Source: Minisyncoccia bacterium
Lineage (GTDB): Bacteria > Patescibacteriota > Minisyncoccia > Phycocordibacterales > UBA9973
Reading direction: 5' to 3'
Assembly (NCBI GenBank): GCA_049303835.1
Contig: JBAQNN010000004.1
Coordinates: forward strand, 2,784 to 66,783
Length of the DNA: 64,000 nt
Shown piece by piece: positions 829-47,696 of this stretch. The stretch's first letter is position 1, and each line of letters opens with the position of its first letter. Under the pieces are notes generated by a model, which worked only from the letters and a program-made list of their open reading frames with translations, ran no database searches and was not told the DNA's origin. The translations under genes were made by a program, and so were the position numbers.

Positions 829-1764
829 TTAATTCCATTTAAAATCACGGCCGAAATGTCCCCAGGCGGAAGTCTCCGCGAATTTTACCTTGTCCAGTTT
901 TAAATATTCACGAATTCCGCGAGGGCTCAAATCGTAGCTAGTGATCGGCTCTTCCACTCCATTTACAATAGCGACTGCCATCACGGGTTCACTTTTCCCT
1001 ATAGCATAAGCGAGTTTAGTATGGACTTCCCTCGCTCCGCGTTTATGTAAAAGTTCCACTGCAATTTTTCGTGCCATATAAGCTCCACTCCTATCTACTT
1101 TTGTGTAATCTTTCCCGGAAAAAGATCCCCCGCCAATAGGAACTTCTGGACCATAATTGTCTATCACAAGCTTTCTGCCCGAGAGCCCCGTATCCGCATC
1201 AAACCCTCCTTGCGTCCATTCTCCTGCGGGATTTATCAAGTATTCATCTGCTTCTATAAAATCTTTTACCAGTTTTAGAAGCTCTTCATTTTTTGTATTC
1301 TGGAAACTCGCCACTACTGTTTTTACCTTATCGTCACCTATCGTCACCTGGGTTTTCCCATCATACGGATACACTTCATAAATTTTTTTACATAAGTCAC
1401 GGGCTAGTACGTATTCCTTCGGCAAGAATTCCGGAGTCTCATTCGTGGCATAGCCTTTCATTATTCCCTGATCCCCCGCCCCACCTAAGTCCACCCCGCG
1501 CGAGATTTCTCTGCTCTGCGCCACAATTTTTGAAATAATTTTATAATCTTTACCGACAATATTTTTTACCAACTTTTCAATATCCACCTTGGCATACGAA
1601 GTCACCTCACCATTGATAGTGATGAGCTCGTGCCCACCCATCACTTCTACTGCTACTCTGCTCTCAATATCGTCTTCCAAATACGCATCCAAAATACTGT
1701 CCGCGATAAAGTCGCAAATTTTATCCGGATGCCCGGGGCTCACAAATTCAGCCGTCTTGATCAT
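829..1764 (-). CDS. metK: S-adenosylmethionine synthetase (short form)
   Basis: GHPDKICD, GAGDQG and GGGSFSGKD motifs; 311 aa short MetK. Confidence 0.9.
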   Translation of the reverse strand: MIKTAEFVSPGHPDKICDFIADSILDAYLEDDIESRVAVEVMGGHELITINGEVTSYAKVDIEKLVKNIVGKDYKIISKIVAQSREISRGVDLGGAGDQGIMKGYATNETPEFLPKEYVLARDLCKKIYEVYPYDGKTQVTIGDDKVKTVVASFQNTKNEELLKLVKDFIEADEYLINPAGEWTQGGFDADTGLSGRKLVIDNYGPEVPIGGGSFSGKDYTKVDRSGAYMARKIAVELLHKRGAREVHTKLAYAIGKSEPVMAVAIVNGVEEPITSYDLSPRGIREYLKLDKVKFAETSAWGHFGRDFKWN

Positions 1765-1774
1765 AATGATTCTT

Positions 1775-1920
1775 AAAACAAAAAATTCCTGGTAATGCAG
1801 GAAATATAAAGACCAATTATCTTTCCCGTTTGGGTTGGAGTTAGCACCCGTTCGAGAGATATTCTCAGGGTTGCTGTGGGGTCACCGAGCCAATTCTCTA
1901 CCACCACTCTTGATACTTAT
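1775..1920 (-). promoter_or_regulatory. SAM-I (S-box) riboswitch in the metK leader, with terminator hairpin
   Basis: Minus-strand sequence ..TATCAAGAGTGGTGGTAGAGAATTGGCTCGGTGACCCCACAGCAACC...GGTGCTAACTCC.. matches the S-box consensus. It is followed by hairpin TTCCTGcattacCAGGAA plus a T-run 10 nt before the metK ATG. Confidence 0.8.
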
Positions 1921-3046: not shown

Positions 3047-4216
3047 ATGCCAAATTTATTAAATTCACAACTTACAAAAAAGCAGGCTGAAGTGTTTGGT
3101 TACTTGGAGAAATTTCAGCAAAAAGAAAAATATTCCCCTGCCCTGAAAAATGTGGCAGACCATTTTGATGTTTCCGTACCCACCATTTTTCAACACGTAG
3201 ATTATTTAGAAAGAAAGGGATATCTAGTGAAAGAAAAAGGAGTAAAGTACTCTATTCGATTATTAAAAAAGCTGAGTGATATTGCTCTGGTTTTTCCCCA
3301 AGAAGAAGTTCAATCTGAGATTGAAACAACAAAATACAAAAAATTACCTTTAAATAAAATTATATTGGGCGATGCACTCGTTGAGTTAAAAAAACTTCCT
3401 AGCGAATCCTGCGACGTAATTGTAATTGACCCCCCTTACAACATTGGAAAGGATTTCGGTAATAATATTGATAAAAGAGAAATGGGAGAATATGTTTCTT
3501 GGTGCAAGGAGTGGATCAACCAGTGTATCCGAGTCATGAAACCAAATGGAACGATGTTTATTTATGGTTTCAGCGAAATATTGGCATATCTTTCAGTTGA
3601 AATCCCAATAAACAAAAGATGGCTCATCTGGCACTATACAAATAAAAATGTAGCTTCATTGCATTTTTGGCAAAGGAGTCACGAGTCCATAATCTGTGCT
3701 TGGAAGGAAAAGCCTGTTTTTAATCGTGATGAGGTGCGAGAGCCTTACACAGAAGGATTTTTAAATGGCGCAGCAGGAAAAACTAGAAAAGGTACAATCG
3801 GTAGATTCAGTTCAAGCGGAAAAGAGACAACCTATAATGCCCACGCAGGTGGTGCCCTCCCCCGAGATGTAATTAAAATACCAGCTTTGGCTGGTGGAGC
3901 GGGAATGAATGAAAGATGGTTTATGTGTAAAACCTGTAAAAATATTTTTGCGCCTAGAGAATTGAAAAACCATGTAGATCATGAGATTGAAAAACATCCA
4001 ACTCAAAAACCTTTTGAATTATCAAAAAAACTAATTTTATCTGCCACTCCTAAAAAGGATGGTGTAATTTTAGTACCATTTGTCGGTACTGGTTCAGAAT
4101 GTGCCGCGGCAAAAGCACTGGGGCAAAATTATATTGGTTTCGAAATAAATCCTGATTATGTAAAAATGGCAGAAAAATATATAGCTTCAGTAGAAGTTAC
4201 ATCAAGGTTATTTTGA
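3047..4216 (+). CDS. Site-specific DNA methyltransferase (beta-class N6A/N4C, DPPY) with N-terminal LexA-like wHTH and internal CxxC Zn-finger insertion
   Basis: DPPYN motif IV precedes the FVGTGSE motif I (beta-class order). The N-terminus resembles the LexA DNA-binding domain. CKTCKN...H...H insertion. ATG at 3047. Confidence 0.8.
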   Translation: MPNLLNSQLTKKQAEVFGYLEKFQQKEKYSPALKNVADHFDVSVPTIFQHVDYLERKGYLVKEKGVKYSIRLLKKLSDIALVFPQEEVQSEIETTKYKKLPLNKIILGDALVELKKLPSESCDVIVIDPPYNIGKDFGNNIDKREMGEYVSWCKEWINQCIRVMKPNGTMFIYGFSEILAYLSVEIPINKRWLIWHYTNKNVASLHFWQRSHESIICAWKEKPVFNRDEVREPYTEGFLNGAAGKTRKGTIGRFSSSGKETTYNAHAGGALPRDVIKIPALAGGAGMNERWFMCKTCKNIFAPRELKNHVDHEIEKHPTQKPFELSKKLILSATPKKDGVILVPFVGTGSECAAAKALGQNYIGFEINPDYVKMAEKYIASVEVTSRLF

Positions 4217-4903
4217 GTCAATTGCTTTCTTATTTTTTAAAAAAACATAGGGAGTAAAAACAACAAAGCCATTTGGAAATCTTTCTAGTTCTTTATTGTC
4301 TATGAATCTTTTATATGGGAGTTTGTATTCACCGTCCTTTTTTCTTGGATTATCAAAATATTCACTACTTGGAACTTCGTAATTAATATCAATGAATTCG
4401 CCATCTATTTGTTTTTTCACTCCCCCCTTCCCACGTCTCACTTCTCCACTAAATGATTTCTTTTTTACTTGATAGTTTAAAGTTTTTCCTTTGTATTTAA
4501 CTTGAAAATCAGCTCCCTGATGGTCCAACTCGCCTGACATCATTACTGAACCATCTCCAAAAACTGATTCAGCAACATAACCAGCATGGATTTGGGTAAT
4601 AATACTTGCCCAGGTACGATAAATTCTTGCGGGAAGCCCACGGTAATAGCAATCTTTACACATTGTTATTTTTTGTCGAAAAGATTCAATTTCAGTTTTT
4701 TGCGAATTTAAATACGCTTCGTAAAAGTCTTCAAAAGTTAAAAACTTTTTTTGATTCCAATACACTTCATAAAGCATATTGATAGCCTGAACCTCTTTCG
4801 GTAAATCCATTTCCACAATTTTAATAGGCCTGAATTTTTCGCGATAACTTGTCAGATCAACCGCTTTCAAAAAAGCATTAAATTTTTCCAAATTTTTCAT
4901 CAT
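4208..4903 (-). CDS. Putative Type II restriction endonuclease partner (candidate PD-(D/E)xK: GELD...FQVK)
   Basis: Convergent with the MTase, overlapping it by 9 bp. No recognisable housekeeping homology. Candidate D...QxK catalytic motif. Confidence 0.35.
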   Translation of the reverse strand: MMKNLEKFNAFLKAVDLTSYREKFRPIKIVEMDLPKEVQAINMLYEVYWNQKKFLTFEDFYEAYLNSQKTEIESFRQKITMCKDCYYRGLPARIYRTWASIITQIHAGYVAESVFGDGSVMMSGELDHQGADFQVKYKGKTLNYQVKKKSFSGEVRRGKGGVKKQIDGEFIDINYEVPSSEYFDNPRKKDGEYKLPYKRFIDNKELERFPNGFVVFTPYVFLKNKKAIDSK

Positions 4904-15220: not shown

Positions 15221-16381
15221 ATGTTCAAAAACAATACTAAATTAAAAAATATCTTCCTGATGGGTTTTTTATTGTCTCTACACCTAGCCTTCACTTCTTA
15301 TATCAATTCTAGCTTTCTATCTATCTCCTCTACCGAAAAATATGTAGGATTGATATATATACTAGGTTCTTTAGCTTCTATCTCTGCTCTTTTTTTTGTT
15401 CCTCTAATGCTTCGCAAGATGGGCGGCTATAAATTTCTACTTTGGTCATCGGGACTAAACGCCCTTTCTCTCCTCTTGTTATCTGTCCTAAAAACTCCGG
15501 CCCAGGTCATACTTATTTTTATTTTTTATTTTACTCTCAACAACATACTCATCTTTGCCCTAGATGAGCTGTTGGAAATATTTTCTAGAAATTCTTCTAC
15601 CGGAAAAGTCCGCGGACTATACCTGACAGTAGTCAACCTAGCCTGGGTAATTTCACAATTTTTCTCAGGTAGGACGCTAGCAGAATTTTCTTTTTCCACC
15701 ATTTATGTCATAGCCTTCATTATCATGAGTATTTTCTTCTTAACTACCTTGCTAAGTCTAGAAAATCTGAAAGATCCAAAATATGATAGGGCTTTTGCTT
15801 GGCAATCTTTTAAAAAATTTTTTGCTGACAAAAACCTCGCCCGTTCCTATGGAATAAATTTTCTTCTACAATTTTTTTATACTTGGATGGTGATATATAC
15901 ACCAATTTACCTATCTGCTCATTTGGGATTTGACTGGAAAGAAATAGGGATAATTTTCACAACAATGCTCTTGCCTTTTGTTTTTATCCAATTTCCCCTC
16001 GGTCAATACTCGGACAAAATAGGCGAGAGGAAAATGCTTATGATCGGATTTTTCATCACAGCCATTACTACCATGGCACTATTTTTTATAGGAAAAAACG
16101 AAGTTTGGATATGGGCTTTAATTTTATTTTGCACCCGAGTCGGAGCTGCCACTGTAGAAGTGATGAGTGATGTTCACTTTTTCAGACATATTGATAAAGA
16201 AAATGACGGGTTTGTCAGTGTATATAGAAACGCGGGTCCTGCTGCTTATGTCCTGGGGCCAATTACCGCTTTTATTGTATTTTTACTCACACCATCTTTT
16301 AATTTTATTTTTCTTATTCTGGGAGCATTAATGTTCGGCGGGGTTTATCTGGCTAGCACAATAAGCAAACAAGATATCTAG
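15221..16381 (+). CDS. MFS-type transporter
   Basis: ~12 predicted TM segments with MFS-like topology. Confidence 0.5.
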   Translation: MFKNNTKLKNIFLMGFLLSLHLAFTSYINSSFLSISSTEKYVGLIYILGSLASISALFFVPLMLRKMGGYKFLLWSSGLNALSLLLLSVLKTPAQVILIFIFYFTLNNILIFALDELLEIFSRNSSTGKVRGLYLTVVNLAWVISQFFSGRTLAEFSFSTIYVIAFIIMSIFFLTTLLSLENLKDPKYDRAFAWQSFKKFFADKNLARSYGINFLLQFFYTWMVIYTPIYLSAHLGFDWKEIGIIFTTMLLPFVFIQFPLGQYSDKIGERKMLMIGFFITAITTMALFFIGKNEVWIWALILFCTRVGAATVEVMSDVHFFRHIDKENDGFVSVYRNAGPAAYVLGPITAFIVFLLTPSFNFIFLILGALMFGGVYLASTISKQDI

Positions 16382-16833
16382 TTTTTTGCTCTCAGTCTTA
16401 GCAAGTGATTTTTGTAGATATTTTCTTTGTATGGCTTCAAGCGCACAATCCTGACCGAAATGCCTCTATTTTTTAAGTATTTTTTTAGATTTTTAACATA
16501 CGCTTTTTGGTCATAACCGAGGGCAATAATACGGGGACGCATTTTCACGATATGCGAAATATGATCTTCCATTCCAGCCAATACCACCTTATCCACCAGA
16601 CTACATTTTTTGACCAAAATTTTTCTTTGCTTTTCGTTTTTATCAGGATATTTTCCTTTAATTTTTAAAACGTTTTTATCTCTGGCAATAGATACAATTA
16701 AAAAAGGATCTGGCGCCAGGTTTTTTGCCTGTTTAAAAAAATTAAGGTGTCCTTGATGCAACCCGTCAAAGGTTCCAAATACCATTATTCTATGGGTCTT
16801 TTTGGCCTTTTCCACAGTTCTTTTTGACATCAT
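16378..16833 (-). CDS. Cytidylyltransferase-like nucleotidyltransferase (RibL/FAD-synthase-like)
   Basis: GTFDGLHQGH (GxFDxxHxGH) motif. Confidence 0.6.
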   Translation of the reverse strand: MMSKRTVEKAKKTHRIMVFGTFDGLHQGHLNFFKQAKNLAPDPFLIVSIARDKNVLKIKGKYPDKNEKQRKILVKKCSLVDKVVLAGMEDHISHIVKMRPRIIALGYDQKAYVKNLKKYLKNRGISVRIVRLKPYKENIYKNHLLRLRAKN

Positions 16834-16879
16834 ATAAGGTAAGTATATACTAAGTAAGTTCCTTTTTAAAAATATAGAA

Positions 16880-17040
16880 ATGATTCGGGGAAACTGGTGA
16901 AAATCCAGTACAGTGCCGCTACGGTAAATCCTAATAAAAAAATAGGATAAGTCCGACTACCAATCATTTTATGTGTCCCGAGCAGGATAACCCTTTCTTT
17001 TTTGAAGGCCCACAAATTCTGCTCACAACAGAATTTTTTT
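16880..17040 (+). promoter_or_regulatory. Cobalamin (AdoCbl) riboswitch with terminator expression platform
   Basis: GGGGAAACTGGTGAAAATCCAGTACAGTGCCGCTACGGTAAATCC matches the cobalamin riboswitch core. A B12-box-like AAGTCCGACTACC follows. Hairpin AATTCTGctcacaaCAGAATT plus T7 lies immediately before the ATG at 17041. Confidence 0.65.
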
Positions 17041-17535
17041 ATGTCTAAATTTATAATAAAAAACAAAATAGTTAGTTTCTGTGTCATTATTGCAATAATT
17101 ATCTTTACAATATTTCTTCTAACTTACAATAAGGGCGATGAGGAAGTAACAGTCTTTACAAACTCCACAGAAAAAACTAGTGAAATAAAATCTGAAAAAG
17201 TTGAAACAACAAAAGAAACAAAACCAACTCTCCGGTCTCTCCCCTCTAAAAATACCGAAAAAATAACCATCATCGCTGGAGAAGAAAAAGTGAGTTTATT
17301 CGTCTCCACCAATACGCTTTTTTATGATGCCTTGGTAGAGGCCAAAAACAAAGGAACCTTGATATTTTCGGGAAAAAATTATTCGGGTATGGGATTTTTT
17401 GTTACCAACATCGGAACACTCCATGCTGGAGACGGGAAGGATTTACTTTATTATGTTAATGGCAAAGAAGCGACTGTCGGCGTTTCTTCTTATGTGCTCA
17501 AAGATGGTGACGTCCTAGAGTGGAAATTAGAATAA
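17041..17535 (+). CDS. DUF4430 (transcobalamin beta-domain-like) membrane-anchored B12-binding protein
   Basis: C-terminal YYVNGKEATVGVSSYVLKDGDVLEW signature. Sits directly under the cobalamin riboswitch. Confidence 0.65.
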   Translation: MSKFIIKNKIVSFCVIIAIIIFTIFLLTYNKGDEEVTVFTNSTEKTSEIKSEKVETTKETKPTLRSLPSKNTEKITIIAGEEKVSLFVSTNTLFYDALVEAKNKGTLIFSGKNYSGMGFFVTNIGTLHAGDGKDLLYYVNGKEATVGVSSYVLKDGDVLEWKLE

Positions 17536-17539
17536 TTTT

Positions 17540-19519
17540 ATGAGAAAAGTTTTTATTTTAGTATTAATATTATTGGTTGGAATGGGGAGAATAACTAAGG
17601 CAGAAGAACCCTCCCCTACACCCCCGCCGGTGGAACCGACAACTATAAGTTTAAAAATCAGAAGCGGAGAAACTATTTTTTTTGATAATTTGGTAGAACT
17701 TTTACCTACCGGCCCTACCGAGATAAATGGACATATTTTGGATGCAAAAAGTGTGCTTGCAACTTTAAATAGGGCTGATTTGAGCGACGTTAATTGGGAC
17801 ATATCTGATTTGCAATATTTTGAATCTTTTGGAAGTTTCCTTTTGAATTGCATAACCAGTTCTGTGGGTACAGATAGCCCCAAGAATGATTGTTACGACT
17901 GGCAATATGCGGTAAATGGCATGACACCCGGTGAAGGTATGGATAAAAAGATTTTAGTTGGTGGAGAAAATGTATATGTTTATTTTAGTCCGCAAAACAA
18001 AATTACTCTGAGCGCAAACACGATAAATACGAATGATTCCCTTCTGGCGACGGCGGAAAAATATAATTTTGAAGATAATACTTGGTTGCCAGCGATCAAT
18101 ATAACGCTTGGCGTCACCCAGCCTGACCCGGTAAGTTCATTCAACCCGCCGATAGAGATAATGACGAGCCCGACTGATACTATTGGACAAGTTGCTTTTA
18201 CTTCCATATCCGCCGGATTATATGACGTGGGAATAAGAGATAATTTTGGATATTACTTTCCGACCAAACCCCTTACAGTAACAACACCCCCACCTCCTGA
18301 TGAAGGAGGCGGAAGTAGTGGAGGAAGCTCCACTCCAGAACCAAAATTTAGCGCGGAAGATGCCTTGTCTTATTTAAAAAACGTACAAGACACAAATGGA
18401 TCTTTTGGTGATTCAAATTTATACACCGACTGGGCAGCCATCGCCTATGGTGCAGGAGGAGTATCTGGCAGCCCCCGCAGTTTACTTTTGGAATATTTCA
18501 ATTCTGACAATGAAATAAGTTCACTTATCACGGACAACGAAAGACGTGCACTGGCCCTGCTTGCTCTCGGAGAAAATCCTTATTCGTTTAATGATGTAAA
18601 CTATATTGAAGCTATCGTTGAGGAATTTGATGAAACACAATTCGGTGATGATAGTCTGGTCAATGATGATATCTTTGCTTTAATTCCCCTGAGCAAGGCC
18701 GGCTATGACGAAGATGATAGTATCATAACCAAAACTATTGATTTTATAATCTCTAAACAAGAGGGAGACGGTTCGTGGGAAGGGAGTGTAGACATCACCG
18801 CAGCGGCCATCCAAGCACTTCTGCCTTTCCAATCAATTGCCGGCGTCTCAGGGGCTCTCACGAACGCAGAAACGTATTTGATAAACACACAGGAAGAGGA
18901 CGGCGGTTGGGGAAATGTTTCCTCTACGAGCTGGGCGATGCAAGCAGAAAATATCCTCAACGCTTCTTGGACAAAAAATGGCAAGAGTGGACTTGATTAC
19001 CTGGCCGAAATACAGACAAGTGCAAACAACAACGGCGCGATGCTACCTTCTTCCGAAAGCTCTCAAAATATAATTTGGACAACAAGTTACGCAATACCTG
19101 CCGGACTGGGCAAGCCATGGAGTGATATTATGGAGCGAGTTTCAAGACCCAAGAAAGAAGACACAGAAGACAATTCTTCTCGCTCATCTAGAAATGACGA
19201 AGATTCCGAAGAAGAAAAAACGGAAGAAATTGTTTTACCTAGCGAGGAAACGAATCTTGTCGCGCCCATAGCCCCCATTTCACCAGAAAAAATTACTAAT
19301 ATCCAGGAAATCGAAAAGTTGCCAGACGATCCCAAAAAAGAAATTCCACCAGGAGAAGAAAAAAGCGATGAACCGACGACCGACATTTTCACCGCCACAG
19401 CAATCAACGCCGTACCACCACAAACTTCTGCCCCTATTCAAGACATTCCAATTATTATAGGGACAGTGTCGGGAACCATTCTCCTCTTTGCGCTACTCAA
19501 ACTTTTAGCTATCTTTTAA
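17540..19519 (+). CDS. Surface protein with DUF4430 domain plus alpha/alpha-toroid (prenyltransferase/transcobalamin alpha-domain-like) repeats and C-terminal TM anchor
   Basis: CYDWQYAVNGMTPGEG (DUF4430 signature). DGSWEG and EDGGWGN toroid-repeat motifs. Acidic linker. C-terminal hydrophobic anchor. Confidence 0.6.
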   Translation: MRKVFILVLILLVGMGRITKAEEPSPTPPPVEPTTISLKIRSGETIFFDNLVELLPTGPTEINGHILDAKSVLATLNRADLSDVNWDISDLQYFESFGSFLLNCITSSVGTDSPKNDCYDWQYAVNGMTPGEGMDKKILVGGENVYVYFSPQNKITLSANTINTNDSLLATAEKYNFEDNTWLPAINITLGVTQPDPVSSFNPPIEIMTSPTDTIGQVAFTSISAGLYDVGIRDNFGYYFPTKPLTVTTPPPPDEGGGSSGGSSTPEPKFSAEDALSYLKNVQDTNGSFGDSNLYTDWAAIAYGAGGVSGSPRSLLLEYFNSDNEISSLITDNERRALALLALGENPYSFNDVNYIEAIVEEFDETQFGDDSLVNDDIFALIPLSKAGYDEDDSIITKTIDFIISKQEGDGSWEGSVDITAAAIQALLPFQSIAGVSGALTNAETYLINTQEEDGGWGNVSSTSWAMQAENILNASWTKNGKSGLDYLAEIQTSANNNGAMLPSSESSQNIIWTTSYAIPAGLGKPWSDIMERVSRPKKEDTEDNSSRSSRNDEDSEEEKTEEIVLPSEETNLVAPIAPISPEKITNIQEIEKLPDDPKKEIPPGEEKSDEPTTDIFTATAINAVPPQTSAPIQDIPIIIGTVSGTILLFALLKLLAIF

Positions 19520-20117
19520 ATTCCGTAATTTTTCCGGCTCTAATCTCAATCTTATCTGCCTTACGAAGTTTCCCCGAAGTTCCCTTGGGTAGGATGTCGT
19601 AGTGTTTTATCTTATCCAACTCTTCATCTATACCCCACAGATCACCCCCTTCCCTCTCCCAACCTTTTTCAAAAATATTTAAATTAAGTGGTGTTGAGTA
19701 TTGTCTTAAAGTTTTTACACCATCATCTAAAAAATATTCATGGAAATAAGACAAGGCCAACTCGCGAATGTTTTTATAAATTGGTTCTCTATACCTTAAA
19801 ACGGCATGGTTTGTCTTTGACAATGCACCCCAGAATCCGCCTACCTTAAATAAAGCAATTACATGGTCATAATCCTCCCTGACAGCTTTTAAATGTAAAA
19901 TATAAGGCTTAAAGCCGTGTAGGGATAAAATATAAGCTCCGAGCAAGGCGCCCTCAAAACAGTGGCTACTCCCTTCGCGTAAAGAAAAAAGCGGAGACTT
20001 TAGCGTCTCCCCTTTTAACTCAAAATTAAATTTTAGTCCGTTTAAAAAATCCTGCATTAAAGCTGGAGTAACCAACTTTTTTAAAAGTCTCTTTTCTTTA
20101 GGACTAAAATCAAACAT
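19509..20117 (-). CDS. Hypothetical protein (possible transglutaminase-like Cys/His/Asp core)
   Basis: SHCFEGALL...DYDHV arrangement; weak. Confidence 0.3.
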   Translation of the reverse strand: MFDFSPKEKRLLKKLVTPALMQDFLNGLKFNFELKGETLKSPLFSLREGSSHCFEGALLGAYILSLHGFKPYILHLKAVREDYDHVIALFKVGGFWGALSKTNHAVLRYREPIYKNIRELALSYFHEYFLDDGVKTLRQYSTPLNLNIFEKGWEREGGDLWGIDEELDKIKHYDILPKGTSGKLRKADKIEIRAGKITEFKR

Positions 20118-29405: not shown

Positions 29406-29450
29406 TGACAAAAACCGTTCCATTTTGCCCAAGATGGACGGTTTTTGTCA
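29406..29450. terminator. Long (about 16-bp) hairpin between convergent genes, candidate bidirectional terminator
   Basis: GACAAAAACCGTTCCAT-loop-ATGGACGGTTTTTGTC. Confidence 0.5.
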
Positions 29451-31187
29451 TCTTTCCCCTATTTGCTGACGCCACATTGCATAATACAATCCTTTTTTAT
29501 TAATTAAGTCCTGATGCGAACCAGATTCAATAATTCTTCCCTTTTCAAGAACATGGATAGTATCGGCGTGCATAACAGTAGACAATCTGTGTGCAATTAA
29601 TATGGTGATGTGAGAACTTTTTTCAGAAAGGTCTTTTATTGTTTTACTGATTTCTTCTTCGGTTAGAGAATCAAGGGAAGAAGTCGCTTCATCAAAAATC
29701 AAGATATTCGGTTTACGCAAGAGTGCCCGAGCGATGGATAACCGCTGACGTTCTCCGCCGGAAACTTTCACTCCACCCTCACCAATCAAGGTGTCTAACC
29801 CCTTACCTCCCCGAGCAAGTAAATTTTGATTTTGCGCTTTATAAAGAGCATCCAAACATTCTTCGTCGGTGGCGCGCGGTTCTACAAAAAGCAAATTTTC
29901 ACGTATCGTTCCAGCGAAAAGCTGCGTATCTTGAGTTACAAAGCCTATCTGGGTTCTCAGCTCTTCTTTGTTTATTGACTCAAAAGGCACTCCATCATAA
30001 TAAATTTCCCCTTCTGTGGGTAAATAAAGTCCGACCAATAATTTCACTAAAGACGTCTTGCCGGAACCAGAAGGACCGACAAAAGCTACCGTCTCCCCTC
30101 GCGCCACATCATAAGAAATATTTTGTAGAGCATTCTCATTACTGGATTTATATTTAAAAGAAACATTTTTAAACGATAATTTTTCCACGGCTTCCAGGTG
30201 TAGAGAATTTTGAACCATCGCCTCTTTTTCTGTCTGCATTAATTTTTGGAAATTCTCCAAAGAAGCCTGCGCTTCACGATAAGTTCCTATCGTAGTCCCT
30301 ATTTCCTGAAGCGGATTAAAAATAAAAAAGGAATATATAAACAATGAAAAGAATTCTCCAAAAGTAATTGTTTTGTTGAAAATTAAATAAAGCAAAAAGA
30401 AAAGAATGCTCGTACGAATAAAATTAATCACCGTTCCTTGGATGAAGCTCAGACTGCGTAGATAGCGGAGCTTTTTTAGTTCCAAGTTCAATATTTTTTC
30501 AGTAGTGGTGTTGAGCCGGTCCACTTCTTGTCCAGAGAGACCCAAGCTTTTCACCAATTCAATATTGCGTAAGGATTCCGTGGTGGACCCAGCCAAGGCG
30601 GTAGTCTCCGCTACGATTACTGATTGGATATTCTTGATTTTCCTTGAAAGAAACAAGCTCATCCCACCAATTAGCGGAATAGTCGCAAAAAACACCACCG
30701 CTACCACCCAATATATATTGGCCGCATAGATAGCCACGAAGATAAACCCCACCAAAGAAACAAAAAGCACGTTGACTATCGCCACTATCAGTTTCTCGGT
30801 GTCTTGCCGAACTTTTTGCAATTTACCCAAGGTCTCCCCACTTCGTTCATCTTCAAAAGTGCTGTAGGGCAGAGCCAGAGCATGTGCGATACCATCCCGA
30901 TATAAATCCGCTCCGACACGCTGACTAATGCCGTTTAAGTAGTAATCCTGAAAATTTTTGGCTACCCTAGAAACAAAAGCCACACCGATGATGGCAAGCA
31001 GTAGCAGCCCGACTCCATAGAAAAATTGAGAGCTAGTGTATAGATCTGGCTTGGAAGCGTATTCATCAATAACATGTCTAAAAATATAGGGGTCCAACAA
31101 AGAAAAAATCTGATTGATAGATGCCAGAGCAAGAGTCAAAACACAAAGACCCCAATATTTTTTTAAGTAATTAAGAAAAACTCCCAT
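29448..31187 (-). CDS. ABC exporter, fused permease plus ATPase (MsbA-like)
   Basis: 6 TM; Walker A GPSGSGKT; LSGGERQRLSIARA signature. Confidence 0.85.
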   Translation of the reverse strand: MGVFLNYLKKYWGLCVLTLALASINQIFSLLDPYIFRHVIDEYASKPDLYTSSQFFYGVGLLLLAIIGVAFVSRVAKNFQDYYLNGISQRVGADLYRDGIAHALALPYSTFEDERSGETLGKLQKVRQDTEKLIVAIVNVLFVSLVGFIFVAIYAANIYWVVAVVFFATIPLIGGMSLFLSRKIKNIQSVIVAETTALAGSTTESLRNIELVKSLGLSGQEVDRLNTTTEKILNLELKKLRYLRSLSFIQGTVINFIRTSILFFLLYLIFNKTITFGEFFSLFIYSFFIFNPLQEIGTTIGTYREAQASLENFQKLMQTEKEAMVQNSLHLEAVEKLSFKNVSFKYKSSNENALQNISYDVARGETVAFVGPSGSGKTSLVKLLVGLYLPTEGEIYYDGVPFESINKEELRTQIGFVTQDTQLFAGTIRENLLFVEPRATDEECLDALYKAQNQNLLARGGKGLDTLIGEGGVKVSGGERQRLSIARALLRKPNILIFDEATSSLDSLTEEEISKTIKDLSEKSSHITILIAHRLSTVMHADTIHVLEKGRIIESGSHQDLINKKGLYYAMWRQQIGER

Positions 31188-37610: not shown

Positions 37611-38060
37611 AATTATTTATTGCTTACTTTCTTTTTATTAAATCGTTGGATTAATAATGTAATTGCTAAAGCAATAAAAACCATCGGTACATTTACAAAA
37701 CTAGGAAACAAAATTGCTAGAGCTGCTCCGATCCCAAAAACTATTAATAGTTGCTTATTTTCTGGTTTCATTTCTTATTTTCTTTTGCGCTTAGTAATAA
37801 GCTACCCGAGATAAGACGCAAAAAGCCCATCACGGGTAGTAGCTTGCGCCACTCATATAGGTTTCCCTATACGGCCAGTAACGACGACCCCATGACGGGT
37901 TCTTTATGCGTTACTGGACTTGTGACCATACCCTAAACGAATTTAGGGGTTAGGTCGCCTTATTAACTTGTAATGAGATTATACCTCCTTTTGGAAGGCT
38001 TGTGTAGCTTAGCTTCCTTTCAAACTAATGCGTAGTGGAGTTATCCACACTTATAATATT

Positions 38061-40151: not shown

Positions 40152-41474
40152 ATGGATAATACACAAACATATGGGGCTCAGATAGGGTTTCCGGCGTTCG
40201 TAGCCCAAGAGCAGATTAAATACTGCCTATATGCTCGTAAATCAAGCGAGGCGGAAGAAAAACAAGCTCTTTCAGTAGATTCTCAAATAAAAGAAATGCT
40301 CACGGTGGCACAAAGAGAGAACCTTAATATTGTTGATATGTATAGAGAATCCCATTCCGCCAAGGATTGTGGACAGCGTCCAGTTTTCAATAAGCTTCTA
40401 GTTGATATTCGTGAAGGAAAATTTAACGGAATAATGGTGTGGCACCCAGACAGATTGAGTCGAAACGCCGGCGACCTTGGAGCAATTGTTGATCTTCTAG
40501 ATCAAAAGAAATTAATTGAAATCAGAACTTATAGTCAGAGGTTCACAAATAATCCAAATGAAAAATTCTTACTAATGATTCTTGGATCACAAGCAAAACT
40601 TGAGAATGATAATAAAAGTGTAAATGTAAAACGTGGACTTAAAGCAAAATGTGAAATGGGACTATGGCCTTCAGTTGCACCTACGGGTTATCTAAACTCA
40701 AAAAATAAAGACCAGCCCGGAGTTGTATTTGTAGATCCTATACGAGCACCCATCATGAAAGAAATATTTGTAAAAGTTGGTCATCAAGGTTGGAGCGGAA
40801 GAAAAGTATTTAGATGGCTTAATGAAATAAAATTTGTTACTAAGACTGGGAAAGCGCTCACTCTTAGTAATGTTTATATTATTTTAAATAATAATTTTTA
40901 TCACGGTACTTTTGAATACCCAAAAGGTAGTGGCAGATGGTTTTTAGGTAAGCACATTCCACTTATCAGTAAAGACTTATTCGATGACACACAGAAACAG
41001 CTTCACCTACAGTTAAGATCTCATGTGAGAAATAAGGAGTTCGCTTTTACCAAGATGTTAACCTGCGGTAATTGTGGCTCTGGAGTAACAGCACAAGAAA
41101 AATACAAAACACTAAAAGATGGCACAGTTAATAAATATATCTATTATGGTTGCACTAGAGCAAGAGATATTAATTGCAAAGAAGGGTATATCGAGGAAAA
41201 AATATTAATTAGTAATCTTTTAGAAATCATAAATCAAATTGATTTAGATAAATCTGGGATCAAGAAAAAGCTTGAGGTAGAAATTGAGCGACATAAGAAA
41301 TTCCATTCGGGCATCATGGGTAAACCAAAAGAAGAGTATTCAGCTCAGGATGCTGATATAAGAAATTATGCCAAATACTTACTTACTGACGGATCAGTAT
41401 TTGAAAAGAGAGACTTATTGGGATGTTTAAAAAGTAAAATAGAGTTAAAAAATAAGAAGATTAATATTACTTAA
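40152..41474 (+). CDS. Large serine recombinase (resolvase catalytic domain, recombinase domain and Zn-ribbon)
   Basis: YARKSSEAEEKQALSVDSQ catalytic Ser region; CGNCGS zinc ribbon; coiled-coil tail. Confidence 0.85.
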   Translation: MDNTQTYGAQIGFPAFVAQEQIKYCLYARKSSEAEEKQALSVDSQIKEMLTVAQRENLNIVDMYRESHSAKDCGQRPVFNKLLVDIREGKFNGIMVWHPDRLSRNAGDLGAIVDLLDQKKLIEIRTYSQRFTNNPNEKFLLMILGSQAKLENDNKSVNVKRGLKAKCEMGLWPSVAPTGYLNSKNKDQPGVVFVDPIRAPIMKEIFVKVGHQGWSGRKVFRWLNEIKFVTKTGKALTLSNVYIILNNNFYHGTFEYPKGSGRWFLGKHIPLISKDLFDDTQKQLHLQLRSHVRNKEFAFTKMLTCGNCGSGVTAQEKYKTLKDGTVNKYIYYGCTRARDINCKEGYIEEKILISNLLEIINQIDLDKSGIKKKLEVEIERHKKFHSGIMGKPKEEYSAQDADIRNYAKYLLTDGSVFEKRDLLGCLKSKIELKNKKINIT

Positions 41475-42618
41475 TCTTTAAGATCGATTCAGTAGTCTTG
41501 TCATAAGAATAATTAACGATCTCACCTTTGATGATCAAATCAATCGCACTTCCGATCACCATAATTGGAGCAATGAACCACTCCTTTGGAATATAATTTT
41601 TTCCATGATTGTCAGTGATCTCAATGTCTAAACATGAATCACTAAAAAAGCGATGTATTAATCTCTCGAATCTTTGAGGGTTCATATTAAAGCATTTATA
41701 TGTAGCAACAATAGAAACTGGAGCCATAAGATAAGTAGGGTCTTGAATTGCATTTTTTATACGATCTTCAATACTAGTAGTCGAAAAGCCAATTTTGAAA
41801 AGATTTTTTGCACTAGCAATTCTAGGGTTATCACTTAAAGATTTTAGAACATATATATATCCAGTTTCTAAATCTTCATCTTCAATATTATTAATATTTT
41901 GCAAATCAGTAATTATTCTTCCTTGGTTAGCATGCAAACCATCAACAAGTGAGCGTAAAAACATATTAGATTCTGTACCGTTTTCAAAAATAATTCTTAA
42001 TCTAGAGTTAAATTTTCTTTGTTCATTTTTTGCAAGATTCCCAATATCTTGAACAAGTCCAACTAGTCCGCCTAAAACAAAGAAAGTTCCTATTTTAATT
42101 TGAGTTCTGTTTTCGAATGGAATTATTACTTTTTTCTTTTCATGCAAAAGATTTCTCATTTCGTTAAACACTTGTTCGAACTTTGAAAAATCAGAACAGG
42201 GTTTTCTTCGCGCAATAAAATCCGCAGTGTTAACTATTTTTCTTTGCGGAACATTCTTTATATTAAAAACAGAACTATCTTCAATAGAAAGTAGATCTAA
42301 GTCATCGTCTTCAAAAATATCACTTACTGTATCAATATCTTTTTTTTCAATCTTTAAAAGACCATGAGTATCATACTTACTTAGAAAGTCCCTTTGTTCC
42401 TTATTTTCTCTGATGTGTTTAAGACGTGATGCGAGCTTATGTTCATGAATATCTCCACCACTCTTTGGTTCAGTGTTGTGCAACGAAAAGAACTCATTTA
42501 TTTCCATAAATGATTCTGATAGCCGATCATCAGGTGTAGCAGAAACAGCCTTCTTGTCTATATCAAGAAGTCCTAAATCGTCATCGTTTATTAAATCTAG
42601 TAAATCGTTTTTATTCAT
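41467..42618 (-). CDS. T5orf172 (GIY-YIG-like) domain protein with tandem acidic DDDLGLLDI N-terminal motifs
   Basis: GYIYVLKS...FKIGFSTTSIEDRIKNA; last gene of the tightly coupled operon. Confidence 0.55.
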   Translation of the reverse strand: MNKNDLLDLINDDDLGLLDIDKKAVSATPDDRLSESFMEINEFFSLHNTEPKSGGDIHEHKLASRLKHIRENKEQRDFLSKYDTHGLLKIEKKDIDTVSDIFEDDDLDLLSIEDSSVFNIKNVPQRKIVNTADFIARRKPCSDFSKFEQVFNEMRNLLHEKKKVIIPFENRTQIKIGTFFVLGGLVGLVQDIGNLAKNEQRKFNSRLRIIFENGTESNMFLRSLVDGLHANQGRIITDLQNINNIEDEDLETGYIYVLKSLSDNPRIASAKNLFKIGFSTTSIEDRIKNAIQDPTYLMAPVSIVATYKCFNMNPQRFERLIHRFFSDSCLDIEITDNHGKNYIPKEWFIAPIMVIGSAIDLIIKGEIVNYSYDKTTESILKIK

Positions 42619-42619
42619 A

Positions 42620-44566
42620 TTAACTATTTAAATTATCTGTCTTAATCTTTATAAGATAAAGCCTTGCTTCTCCAAGCCTCTTTTCTAGAGGGTCAGAAGA
42701 ATTATGGTCAGGATTTCTTCCTGTACGTTTCTTGAATTCATTCATTTTTGGCCATAGAATTTTAACCTCCTCTGGAGTCATTTCAATTCGCGAAGAATCA
42801 ATAGTATCTTGAATGACTTTAAGAATACTCGATGTGACCGATTTTGAAAGTATTTCAAAAGCTTCTTGAAATGGATTAATTTTGTCGATAAGGTCAATAT
42901 TAAGTTCATCTATATTTACAAACTGTCCTGCCATTCTTACGAATTTCTTATCTCCAACTTCTTTGATTTCTCCGTTCTTGATCACAGAATCGACTACAAC
43001 ATGCTGACGCACTTCCTCAACTTCAAGATCGGTAAGATCAGGATATTTCATTTGAATAATCTTCGGGATCATCACTTTGTTTATTACCTCAGGGTCAACA
43101 TTTCCAGGCAAAGCCTTAATCATCTGATCATCCTGAAGAATTGAAGCTTTTAGATCGTTGATATCAGAATCAATAATCTCACGAACTCGATCAGTGCTTG
43201 GAGCCTTAAATCCGTTTACTTTGATTTCACCTGGAGTAAAGGCTGTGTCGTCATTTGGGAATCGTGGCTTGAAGTTGTAGTGCGGAGCCATGACTTGTTC
43301 CATAAGTAAAGAACAAGTAATAGCTTTCAACATGTTATTTACCGACACCTTAACTTCTCCATCTTTTGCATCTGGTTGTGCGATGAGGTTTGTAAACTGT
43401 GCGTGTTTTTTATTTGCACTATCACGAGTACAACGACCAATGATCTGAATAATTTCAGTAAGTGAACTACGGTAGCCGATAGTTAAAGCATGTTCACAGT
43501 ACGGCCAATCAAAACCTTCTTTTGCCATACCAAGAGCAATAATGATGTCCATATCCTCCTCCTTTTTCATTGTGCGGAGATAGTTTGAAATCTTTTCACG
43601 ATGCTTCGAATCATCTTCAACAAGATTTGCTATTTTTAGAATTTTTCCATCACGATCACGCCTGATTGTGTAAACTCCAGTTTCTTCGTCTACGCTAACT
43701 GTTGATCCGTCACCAATGATATCAAGTATCATGTTTACTTCTTGATATTTATCTTTCATAGACTCACCTGCGTTTACGTTTGGAATGTGAACAATAGTTT
43801 TTTTATCTGTATCTAAAACTTCCGCAATAGCAGAGATGTACTTACCTTGGTAAAAGTGATATCCAATGCCCAAGGTCTTTAAATAGGTGTAGCCATTCAA
43901 TTGCTGATAGTAGTTGTATGTTACTTTCTGAAACTTTGCCTCATCTTGTGGTAACAATATCGCAACACCATCTCCTCGGAAGTATGATCCTGTCATCGCA
44001 ATAATATGCGCGTTTGAGTTTGTCATTATTCCATGCAAAACTCGTCCTAAAATACTGCTTTCTTTATCAGCAGCTACATGATGAAATTCGTCGATAGCTA
44101 GTAGGGTATCATTAAATTTAAGGTCTTCAATTTGCTCGCAAGCAAATCTTAGTGTTGCGTGAGTACAAATAAGAATCTTCTCGTCGTTATCCATAAAATT
44201 CTTGAATGCTTCAACTTTGCCTTTGGCATTATCAAGACCTGGAGTACAGAGGTTGTAATTATCGTTGGGTTTCCAGTCAGCGAAGAATCCACCTTGAGTT
44301 AGGTTTGTTTCACTGAAAGATCCACCAATAGATTTTTCAGGAACGGCAACGATAACCTTTTTGATTCCTTGATTAGCAAGTTTGTCTAAAGCAAGAAACA
44401 TCAATGCTCTTGATTTTCCAGATGCAGGGGGTGCTTTCAAAAGGAGGTATTGAGCACCTCTTTTCTCAAATGCTTTTGCCTGCATTTCACGCATACCAAG
44501 TTCATTGAGTTTGGTACTTTGTCCTGTTTGCGCGTATGTTGCTTCTGCTACTTGAATTGTTTTCAT
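42620..44566 (-). CDS. SF2 DEAD/DEAH-box helicase (Type III res-subunit-like ATPase)
   Basis: Motif I PPASGKS, motif II DEFHH, motif VI QIIGRCTR. Confidence 0.8.
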   Translation of the reverse strand: MKTIQVAEATYAQTGQSTKLNELGMREMQAKAFEKRGAQYLLLKAPPASGKSRALMFLALDKLANQGIKKVIVAVPEKSIGGSFSETNLTQGGFFADWKPNDNYNLCTPGLDNAKGKVEAFKNFMDNDEKILICTHATLRFACEQIEDLKFNDTLLAIDEFHHVAADKESSILGRVLHGIMTNSNAHIIAMTGSYFRGDGVAILLPQDEAKFQKVTYNYYQQLNGYTYLKTLGIGYHFYQGKYISAIAEVLDTDKKTIVHIPNVNAGESMKDKYQEVNMILDIIGDGSTVSVDEETGVYTIRRDRDGKILKIANLVEDDSKHREKISNYLRTMKKEEDMDIIIALGMAKEGFDWPYCEHALTIGYRSSLTEIIQIIGRCTRDSANKKHAQFTNLIAQPDAKDGEVKVSVNNMLKAITCSLLMEQVMAPHYNFKPRFPNDDTAFTPGEIKVNGFKAPSTDRVREIIDSDINDLKASILQDDQMIKALPGNVDPEVINKVMIPKIIQMKYPDLTDLEVEEVRQHVVVDSVIKNGEIKEVGDKKFVRMAGQFVNIDELNIDLIDKINPFQEAFEILSKSVTSSILKVIQDTIDSSRIEMTPEEVKILWPKMNEFKKRTGRNPDHNSSDPLEKRLGEARLYLIKIKTDNLNS

Positions 44567-44570
44567 AGTA

Positions 44571-47625: not shown

Positions 47626-47696
47626 CTGGGAGACTTGGATTCGAACCAAGATATCATCCTCCAGAGGGATGAGTCCTACCATTAGACGATCTCCCA
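47626..47696 (-). tRNA. tRNA-Gln (anticodon CUG)
   Basis: Hand-folded cloverleaf: U1-A72 acceptor, T-loop TTCGAAT, anticodon loop CTCTGGA. Confidence 0.75.

Follow-up and report, generated by a model that had tools for sequence, protein, structure and literature searches.

The animal carriers of cobalamin (B12), transcobalamin, intrinsic factor and haptocorrin (PF01122 + PF14478; structures 2bb5, 2pmv and 4kki), combine a 12-helix alpha6/alpha6 barrel, the alpha-domain, with a beta-domain of the beta-grasp fold that carries a clade-specific hairpin. A bacterial transcobalamin-like clade of SLBB domains includes fusions with alpha/alpha-toroids in either order, with added immunoglobulin (Ig) domains, and is encoded in operons with a second SLBB paralogue, with linkage to genes of the energy-coupling factor (ECF) type and in hosts without B12 synthesis; the predicted role of this family is scavenging of B12 or its precursors (Burroughs et al. 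2007, PMC1796856). In L. sakei, the split beta-like and alpha-like proteins Lsa1839 and Lsa1840 have been proposed to pair up as a heterodimer that would bind a ligand and supply it to a membrane transporter (bioRxiv 10.1101/864751). Here, we describe a related cassette in a 64-kb window (the whole stretch of DNA that was analysed; AT-rich, with 38% G+C) from a metagenome-assembled genome (MAG) of a Minisyncoccia bacterium, a member of the Candidate Phyla Radiation (CPR, or Patescibacteria). In this cassette, an adenosylcobalamin (AdoCbl) riboswitch precedes the genes for a small transcobalamin beta-domain-like protein (gene 1; NCBI MFZ3012010.1) and a large multidomain protein (gene 2; NCBI MFZ3012011.1), both on a 68,765-nt contig. 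We interpret the locus as an operon of two genes for corrinoid capture, controlled by an OFF riboswitch that senses AdoCbl; the captured corrinoid would go to an importer and then, after adenosylation, to an AdoCbl-dependent ribonucleotide reductase (RNR). To this interpretation, we assign a probability of about 0.75.

The architecture and the scavenging role are not new, having been predicted by Burroughs et al. (2007; PMC1796856). The present locus shares with the systems described there an SLBB domain located N-terminal to the toroid, in the same order as in a Bacillus protein, the Ig-fold extras, a second small extracellular SLBB protein in the operon, and a signal peptide or a membrane or cell-surface anchor. 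New here are the CPR lineage, as opposed to the Firmicutes or archaea of the earlier report, and the breadth of conservation within it; a dedicated AdoCbl riboswitch with a conserved terminator platform; a C-terminal transmembrane (TM) tether that follows a long disordered stalk, in place of an LPXTG signal; an operon without a transporter, that is, without the CbiO/CbiQ-type (ECF) genes; and, in sister lineages, tight linkage to CbrT-like, NrdJ (the AdoCbl-dependent RNR) and cobalamin adenosyltransferase genes.

With the animal carriers, the locus has in common both the 12-helix barrel and the beta-grasp domain with its hairpin. Unlike in those soluble proteins, the domains come in the reverse order and have an Ig domain between them (beta'-Ig-alpha), the best beta-domain resides on a separate polypeptide, and the proteins are membrane-tethered; the large protein has no significant PF01122 match, and sequence identity is 13-20%. 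The separate genes for beta-like and alpha (toroid)-like extracytoplasmic proteins recall Lsa1839/Lsa1840, but the L. sakei pair comes with a full ECF transporter and has been read as a heme system, whereas the operon described here includes a cobalamin riboswitch and no transporter, and its toroid protein carries extra SLBB-like and Ig domains. The functional idea is also shared with BtuG of Bacteroides, a surface lipoprotein that captures B12 with high affinity under B12-riboswitch control and feeds a transporter. BtuG has an unrelated fold, a beta-propeller, and belongs to a diderm cell, in which its partner is a TonB-dependent transporter of the outer membrane.

The predicted riboswitch is real, and its expression platform is a terminator of the OFF type. 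A scan of the whole window with the Rfam covariance models (cmscan) yielded six matches above the gathering scores, one of which was RF01482 (AdoCbl; clan CL00101), aligned over model positions 1-149 of 149 with 53.3 bits (E 5.9e-07; gathering score 50). An earlier reading of the same DNA, made from the letters alone (hereafter, the sequence-only reading), had predicted a cobalamin riboswitch here and expected a match to RF00174; the riboswitch and the cobalamin clan were identified correctly, but the best-scoring member of the clan is RF01482 instead. The core and B12-box-like elements that it had pointed out, GGGGAAACUGGUGAAAAUCCAG, GCCGCUACGGUAA and AAGUCCGACUACC, are all found in the window. 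An alignment of 59 homologous elements reveals an invariant aptamer core and variable helices. The GCCGCUACGGU core, AGUCCG..ACC and the B12 box (columns A90, G91, C93, C94 and G95) are invariant or nearly so, and the UCCCGAGCAGGA hairpin, the 3' part of which doubles as one antiterminator strand, is almost invariant. Compensatory double changes were detected in 13 of the 22 consensus pairs (RNAalifold), for example, CUGG/CCAG versus GAGG/CCUC, in 26-27 sequences.

On its own, the leader is most stable as the antiterminator (minimum free energy -16.2 kcal/mol, z = -2.45 compared to shuffled sequences). When 16976-16990 is blocked, the fold switches to a terminator (segment -9.0 kcal/mol), the stem of which pairs AAAUUCUG (17014-17021) with CAGAAUUU (17029-17036) around the loop CUCACAA and is followed by seven U's that extend to 17040. 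Given these alternative folds, the architecture is that of a classical OFF switch acting via transcription termination. There is no essential difference from known AdoCbl riboswitches with termination platforms (RF01482/CL00101), with which the element shares the full-length model match, the B12 box and the 3' hairpin coupled to the choice between terminator and antiterminator, the local peculiarity being that the U-tract runs into an ATG without a Shine-Dalgarno sequence. A terminator hairpin had been anticipated 1 nt before the ATG; the hairpin is there, but the U-tract directly abuts the ATG at 17041. A generic terminator scan reported no plus-strand terminator in the leader because its rule requires at least 3 G-C pairs and the stem has fewer, whereas direct folding did reveal one. 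The antiterminator/terminator design is common to most related loci, and the terminator with its U-tract just ahead of the start codon recurs across them, with two stem sequence variants. No recognisable Shine-Dalgarno sequence precedes gene 1; in the window (17030-17043) and in most related loci, the start codon of the small gene lies 0-12 nt past the U-tract, without such a sequence. Read-through transcripts must initiate translation on an A/U-rich leader that lacks a Shine-Dalgarno sequence.

The product of gene 1 is a clear member of the Pfam family DUF4430 (PF14478; aa 95-164, 40.1 bits, E 5e-10; gathering score 23.8 bits). All 44 homologues begin with a basic segment and a hydrophobic helix, followed by a linker that varies and a C-terminal domain that is highly conserved. 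The AlphaFold2 model, with a predicted local distance difference test score (pLDDT) of 79 overall and above 90 in the domain, includes a TM helix (aa 6-29), a low-confidence linker and a DUF4430/SLBB beta-grasp domain (aa 72-163) with the strand/helix order bb-a-bb-bb-b, in which an extra hairpin follows the helix. In a Foldseek search of the PDB, ranks 1-19 are all occupied by beta-domains of transcobalamin, haptocorrin or intrinsic factor, or by the bacterial DUF4430 structure 3u7z. The best match is the human transcobalamin beta-domain, 5no0 (TM-score 0.75, root-mean-square deviation (rmsd) 2.1 Å, 98 columns), and generic ubiquitin-like folds rank below the transcobalamin-type matches. Searches of PDB chains by sequence, with gene 1 itself or with its family profile, returned nothing meaningful.

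The model of the gene 2 product (pLDDT 83, predicted TM-score (pTM) 0.51) starts with a signal-peptide-like helix (aa 1-14 in the model, approximately 1-21 from the sequence). The N-terminal domain that follows has the strand order of the gene 1 domain plus one more hairpin, two invariant cysteines (C104 and C118) and the motif WQYAVNG. Past the Ig-like domain, a Pro/Gly/Ser linker (aa ~249-269; pLDDT <50 at 254-263) leads to the toroid, with 12 helices modelled at pLDDT >90 between aa 272 and 522, and the chain ends with a disordered, acidic, Pro-rich stalk of about 95 residues (aa 542-636) and a terminal TM helix (aa 637-658). The modelled terminal helix bears out the TM anchor postulated for the larger protein in the sequence-only reading. 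The motif T-A-(I/V)-N-(A/S/T)-(L/V)-P is conserved about 25 residues before the C-terminal TM helix of gene 2 (window 19400-19519 and orthologues P0002-P0021), and the tail past this helix is very short; this motif, which is not LPXTG, might be a lineage-specific sorting or anchoring signal.

DUF4430 had been ascribed to both genes on the strength of the signature W.Y.VNG...LKDGD..W. The signature is present, but its literal form is split between the two proteins, with YYVNG...LKDGDVLEW in gene 1 and WQYAVNG...LVGGENVYVYF in gene 2, and the family assignment holds directly for gene 1, whereas the match of gene 2 itself falls below the Pfam threshold. Orthologues of the same length as gene 2 pass this cut-off at the equivalent N-terminal position (P0079, aa 89-163, 29.2 bits; P0093, 29.0 bits), and for this reason, we take the N-terminal domain of gene 2 as a divergent member of the DUF4430 family. 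Longer relatives of gene 2 carry two DUF4430 stretches, and a hidden Markov model of the small-protein domain yields non-significant yet co-located matches in many large-protein orthologues.

The toroid of gene 2 contains the repeats QDTNGSF (aa 283), QEGDGSW (aa 407) and QEEDGGW (aa 451), in agreement with the QxxDGxWG-type repeats noticed previously. In sequence comparisons, it matches SQHop_cyclase_C (33.9 bits) and squalene-hopene cyclase chains in the PDB (E 4.7e-05 with the single sequence and 1e-11 with the family profile). No PF01122 match was detected in gene 2 by Pfam at E <= 0.01; among the orthologues, only P0039 passes (25.4 bits vs 25), and four others have matches below the threshold. 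At the level of structure, Foldseek finds the transcobalamin structures 2bb5, 7qbf and 8ixu (E ~1e-5, TM-score 0.41-0.49, ~300 columns), and the toroid fold is about equally close to the squalene-hopene/small cyclase 8pak (TM-score 0.57). The most conserved feature of the domain across 57 family members is the motif NDDIFA (aa 375-380; 18662-18679): three of its positions (D376, D377 and F379) never vary, and the other three (N375, I378 and A380) are kept in at least 90% of the members. The motif is a candidate ligand-contact or structural site. Of the complete transcobalamin on one anchored chain that the sequence-only reading envisaged, the toroid, a divergent beta-grasp domain and the tether are present, but the order is beta'-Ig-alpha, and the better beta-domain is on a separate protein.

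A scan of a genome collection with the large-protein family retrieved 80 related loci, all from CPR-type MAGs. The small and large genes are adjacent in 68 of these. Using the window aptamer as the query, nhmmer found a homologous element on the same strand, 5' of the gene, in 64 loci, and a profile built from 59 aptamers raised the count of the riboswitch-small-large arrangement to 66 of 80, with one copy in each. In eight riboswitch-less genomes (L019, L029, L034, L037, L039, L040, L046 and L061), neither Rfam at the gathering score nor the profile nhmmer search detected a cobalamin riboswitch. A gene of the ArsR family with a helix-turn-helix domain is usually located 3' of the large gene in this riboswitch-less clade and might be an alternative regulator. 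Several related MAGs bear the titles Burkholderiales, Gammaproteobacteria or Saccharibacteria (L031, L044, L049, L050, L052 and L069, along with many labelled 'Saccharibacteria'); since the cassette and its neighbours in these MAGs are of the same CPR type, the records are probably mislabelled.

In the clade that includes the window, the gene order is SBP_bac_5, a 655-aa protein, a major facilitator superfamily (MFS) protein, a minus-strand cytidylyltransferase, the riboswitch, the small gene and the large gene. In about 30 other genomes, the cassette directly follows a trio consisting of a CbrT-like gene, an AdoCbl-dependent RNR and a cobalamin adenosyltransferase (for example, L003:3516-6902; also L004, L011, L017, L025, L028 and L072). 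The first gene of the trio (for example, L003:3516-4061) encodes a 181-aa multi-pass membrane protein with weak matches to ECF S-components; its profile, aligned along almost the entire length, has as its top PDB entry 6FNP, CbrT, the B12-specific S-component of ECF-CbrT. The second encodes a 760-aa ATP-cone RNR of the AdoCbl-dependent type (TIGR02505, 280 bits) with a B12-RNR insertion domain, and the third, a PduO-type (154 bits, above the cut-off) or CobA-type cobalamin adenosyltransferase. In the eight riboswitch-less genomes listed above, the small and large genes are contiguous with trio genes, which do not always include the adenosyltransferase. No EcfA or EcfT genes were seen adjoining the CbrT-like gene in the trio loci, and a search for a second riboswitch 5' of the CbrT-like and NrdJ genes in the related loci found none. 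By guilt-by-association, the B12 neighbourhood in the sister lineages argues strongly that the cassette functions in cobalamin supply.

Within the window, the cassette (Table 1) is a two-gene unit that is bordered upstream by a divergent cytidylyltransferase-like gene (16378-16833, minus strand) and downstream by a convergent gene for a 202-aa protein to which no function was assigned (19509-20117, minus strand).

Table 1. Features of the cassette, with positions in the window
Feature	Position	Strand	Basis or detail
Sigma-70-like promoter	16824-16851	+	TTGACA, 16 nt spacer, TATACT; 11/12 consensus positions
AdoCbl (cobalamin) riboswitch aptamer, RF01482	16864-16995	+	Rfam covariance model, homologue alignment, compensatory pairs
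B12 box AAGUCCGACUACC inside aptamer	16949-16961	+	Alignment columns
UCCCGAGCAGGA hairpin, 3' P13/L13 element of Rfam model	16976-16987	+	Model alignment
Antiterminator: GAGCAGGAU (16980-16988) pairs with AUUCUGCUC (17016-17024)	16980-17024	+	Minimum-free-energy fold
Intrinsic terminator, U-tract to 17040	17014-17040	+	RNA folding
Gene 1, 164 aa, transcobalamin beta-domain-like	17041-17535	+	Pfam, model, Foldseek
Gene 2, 659 aa, multidomain surface protein	17540-19519	+	Pfam, model, Foldseek
Gene 2 aa 35-150, divergent DUF4430-like beta-grasp	17642-17989	+	Model, profile comparison, orthologues
Gene 2 aa 153-248, all-beta Ig-like sandwich	17996-18283	+	Model; matches to MG-domain-containing complement/alpha2-macroglobulin proteins
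Gene 2 aa 270-535, 12-helix (alpha/alpha)6 toroid	18347-19144	+	Model, Pfam, Foldseek, motifs
Gene 2 aa 542-658, disordered stalk, then C-terminal TM anchor	19163-19513	+	Model, composition

The B12-scavenging surface apparatus suggested by the sequence-only reading is supported by the riboswitch, the fold of the small protein, the tethered toroid and the B12 context in the sister lineages. Most likely, the operon serves to capture corrinoids at the cell surface and is shut off when there is enough AdoCbl in the cytoplasm. Direct support exists for the identity of the riboswitch, for the two alternative folds of the RNA, for the folds of the individual protein domains, and for a cassette that is conserved and linked to B12 genes; the following scenario builds on these points. 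Transcription would start from the strong promoter at about 16858, just 5' of the aptamer. At low cytoplasmic AdoCbl, GAGCAGGAU would pair with AUUCUGCUC, the terminator would be blocked, and both genes would be transcribed. When AdoCbl, presumably in preference to other cobalamins, is bound, the UCCCGAGCAGGA hairpin would be held in the tertiary structure of the aptamer, so that the terminator forms and transcription halts just before the ATG; that ligand binding sequesters 16976-16990 is suggested by analogy with established AdoCbl riboswitches. Both products are predicted to be displayed on the outside of the cytoplasmic membrane. The small protein, anchored by its N-terminal helix, would present the transcobalamin-beta-like SLBB domain, and the large protein, anchored by its C-terminal helix on the flexible ~95-residue stalk, would present the divergent SLBB domain, the Ig-like spacer and the toroid, which we take as the equivalent of the transcobalamin alpha-domain. 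By analogy with transcobalamin, the toroid and one SLBB domain might clamp the corrinoid between them. From there, the corrinoid would reach a membrane importer encoded elsewhere in the genome and, once adenosylated, would be used by the AdoCbl-dependent RNR.

The clamping SLBB domain is at least as likely to act in trans, that is, to be that of the small protein, as in cis, because the small protein is a much better match to the transcobalamin beta-domain and is obligatorily co-encoded with the toroid protein. A more specific version of this scenario, which we put forward only tentatively, is a CPR two-piece, membrane-tethered analogue of transcobalamin, in which the stalked toroid and a beta-domain with an anchor of its own would enclose, in trans, a corrinoid acquired from the surroundings or from a host cell surface. 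A small CbrT/BtuM-like S-component would then receive this corrinoid, perhaps with no dedicated ECF module involved.

Several observations weigh against the corrinoid-capture interpretation. No importer, B12-dependent enzyme or adenosyltransferase is encoded in the window: as the sequence-only reading had remarked for the immediate vicinity, a BtuCD or ECF transporter is lacking, Pfam searches finding no BtuCD, ECF or BtuM/CbrT-like gene among the 35 open reading frames (ORFs) scanned, and tblastn searches of the window with the CbrT-like, NrdJ and adenosyltransferase families from the sister loci returned nothing. In those sister loci, the CbrT-like assignment is marginal (E 0.029, with Pfam and NCBIfam matches below the cut-offs). 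The inter-domain geometry of the gene 2 model is uncertain, as indicated by the pTM of 0.51; the DUF4430 match of gene 2 is sub-threshold (aa 110-150, 17.0 bits vs 23.8, E 0.008); and the profile comparison of its N-terminal domain with the gene 1 domain (hhalign, E 0.022) is weak, but in register. The toroid sequence is nearest to the squalene-hopene cyclase repeats rather than to PF01122, and comparison of the gene 2 sequence and family profile to the PDB sequences yields squalene-hopene and terpene cyclases only, never transcobalamin. Finally, the best Foldseek matches of the whole gene 2 model are complement C3 and alpha2-macroglobulin.

Two transporter-like genes of the window were considered as possible B12 carriers and rejected. 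The MFS gene (15221-16381, plus strand, 386 aa) retains the same place 5' of the riboswitch in about 20 genomes of the window clade, a position that, in the other clade, is occupied by the trio of CbrT-like, NrdJ and adenosyltransferase genes; it is not part of the riboswitch unit, and nothing connects it with B12. The ABC exporter-type gene at 29448-31187, a candidate BacA-like importer, has homologues at variable distances, 2-12 genes away, in only 9 loci, which does not support an association.

The same architecture could serve for a different ligand, another tetrapyrrole or an incomplete corrinoid (cobinamide, another cobamide or heme), in which case the riboswitch would only report the end product. 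That the L. sakei split pair belongs to an ECF operon claimed for heme uptake (bioRxiv 10.1101/864751) is in line with this possibility and counts against ours, and the original prediction was phrased as 'B12 or its precursors', with a distinct metabolite allowed in archaea (Burroughs et al. 2007, PMC1796856). We nevertheless consider a different ligand unlikely: a cobalamin riboswitch governs the cassette in 66 of the 80 genomes, the cassette is physically linked to the AdoCbl-dependent RNR and to cobalamin adenosyltransferases, and no heme-related gene turned up in the clustered neighbourhoods. Less probable still, in our assessment, is that the large protein is an adhesin, a host-contact protein or a protease trap of the complement/alpha2-macroglobulin type, the expression of which merely tracks B12, for instance, as a signal that a host is nearby. 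Complement and alpha2-macroglobulin proteins also combine beta-sandwich domains with a toroid, and complement C3 and C5, TEP1, A2ML1 and bacterial alpha2-macroglobulin are the top Foldseek matches in the PDB (E 8e-08 to 1e-05), but the TM-scores to the gene 2 model are low, only 0.17-0.28, with an rmsd of 18-32 Å. Orthologues of gene 2 produce sub-threshold Pfam matches to TED_complement, and yet there is no CGEQ thioester motif, the only cysteines of the window protein are those at aa 104 and 118, and a cysteine in the toroid is found in just 1 of the 57 family members. The long stalk and the surface display would fit a contact protein of an episymbiont; such a function leaves unexplained the obligatory transcobalamin-beta-like partner and the NrdJ/adenosyltransferase neighbourhood.

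The database names of the large protein, 'prenyltransferase/squalene oxidase repeat' and 'terpene cyclase/mutase family', would make it an enzyme, and indeed, its best sequence matches are SQHop_cyclase_C and the squalene-hopene cyclase chains. These matches, however, are confined to the QW-repeat region, and the NCBIfam scores are 18-34 bits against cut-offs of 300-851 (for example, 33 vs 323). One DEDD is present at aa 390 of gene 2, but only its last D is conserved, and DxDD occurs anywhere in the toroid in only 11 of the 57 family members; there is no cysteine for a prenyltransferase zinc site. The signal peptide and the C-terminal anchor in the model place the domain, in all likelihood, outside the cytoplasm, away from isoprenoid diphosphates, and an enzymatic role leaves the B12-related context unexplained, so that we give this possibility hardly any credence. 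On motifs, with DxDD not conserved, CGEQ absent and the toroid essentially free of cysteines, both the enzyme and the thioester-protein readings of gene 2 were rejected.

Several other features of the window, although unconnected to the cassette, deserve mention. An S-adenosylmethionine (SAM) riboswitch (RF00162, 58.7 bits; 1814-1919, minus strand) lies directly 5' of metK, the SAM synthetase gene (829-1764, minus strand), and a LOOT RNA (RF03000), a small RNA motif without an assigned function, was detected at 37838-37956 on the minus strand (89.9 bits vs the cut-off of 46.4). A probable mobile or defence island (40152-47249), adjoining a tRNA (47626-47696, minus strand), encodes a large serine recombinase, a T5orf172/MUG113-domain protein, a ResIII/DEAD helicase and a complete MmeI-type restriction-modification enzyme. 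A second restriction-modification pair (3047-4903) consists of an N6/N4 DNA methylase with a LexA-type DNA-binding domain (3047-4216, plus strand) and a TaqI-like endonuclease (4208-4903, minus strand). The plus-strand ORF at 58482-64000, of more than 1839 codons, has a signal-peptide-like start and runs off the end of the window; it probably encodes a giant surface protein.

The CPR bacteria make almost no cofactors themselves, which makes the acquisition of cofactors central to their dependence on other cells. Against this background, the locus described here and its 66 or more counterparts mark a conserved, regulated B12-acquisition module that, in many lineages, is wired directly to the AdoCbl-dependent RNR, that is, to DNA synthesis. 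An annotation caveat follows for the CPR: proteins named 'prenyltransferase/squalene oxidase repeat-containing' or 'terpene cyclase/mutase family' are most likely not isoprenoid enzymes. As far as the literature searched shows, the bacterial transcobalamin-like family has remained a purely computational prediction since 2007, our search having found no experimental study of the family and nothing on it in the CPR. With their compact size and confident models, the CPR proteins lend themselves well to a first biochemical and structural test of that prediction; they would also help in testing whether the animal B12 carriers are of bacterial origin, as has been proposed. Should the tentative two-piece, in trans arrangement be true, B12 piracy would be a conserved, riboswitch-gated input to DNA-precursor synthesis, via the AdoCbl-dependent RNR, in minimal cells, and the bacterial ancestor of the animal B12 carriers would be present in far more monoderm lineages than the Firmicutes.

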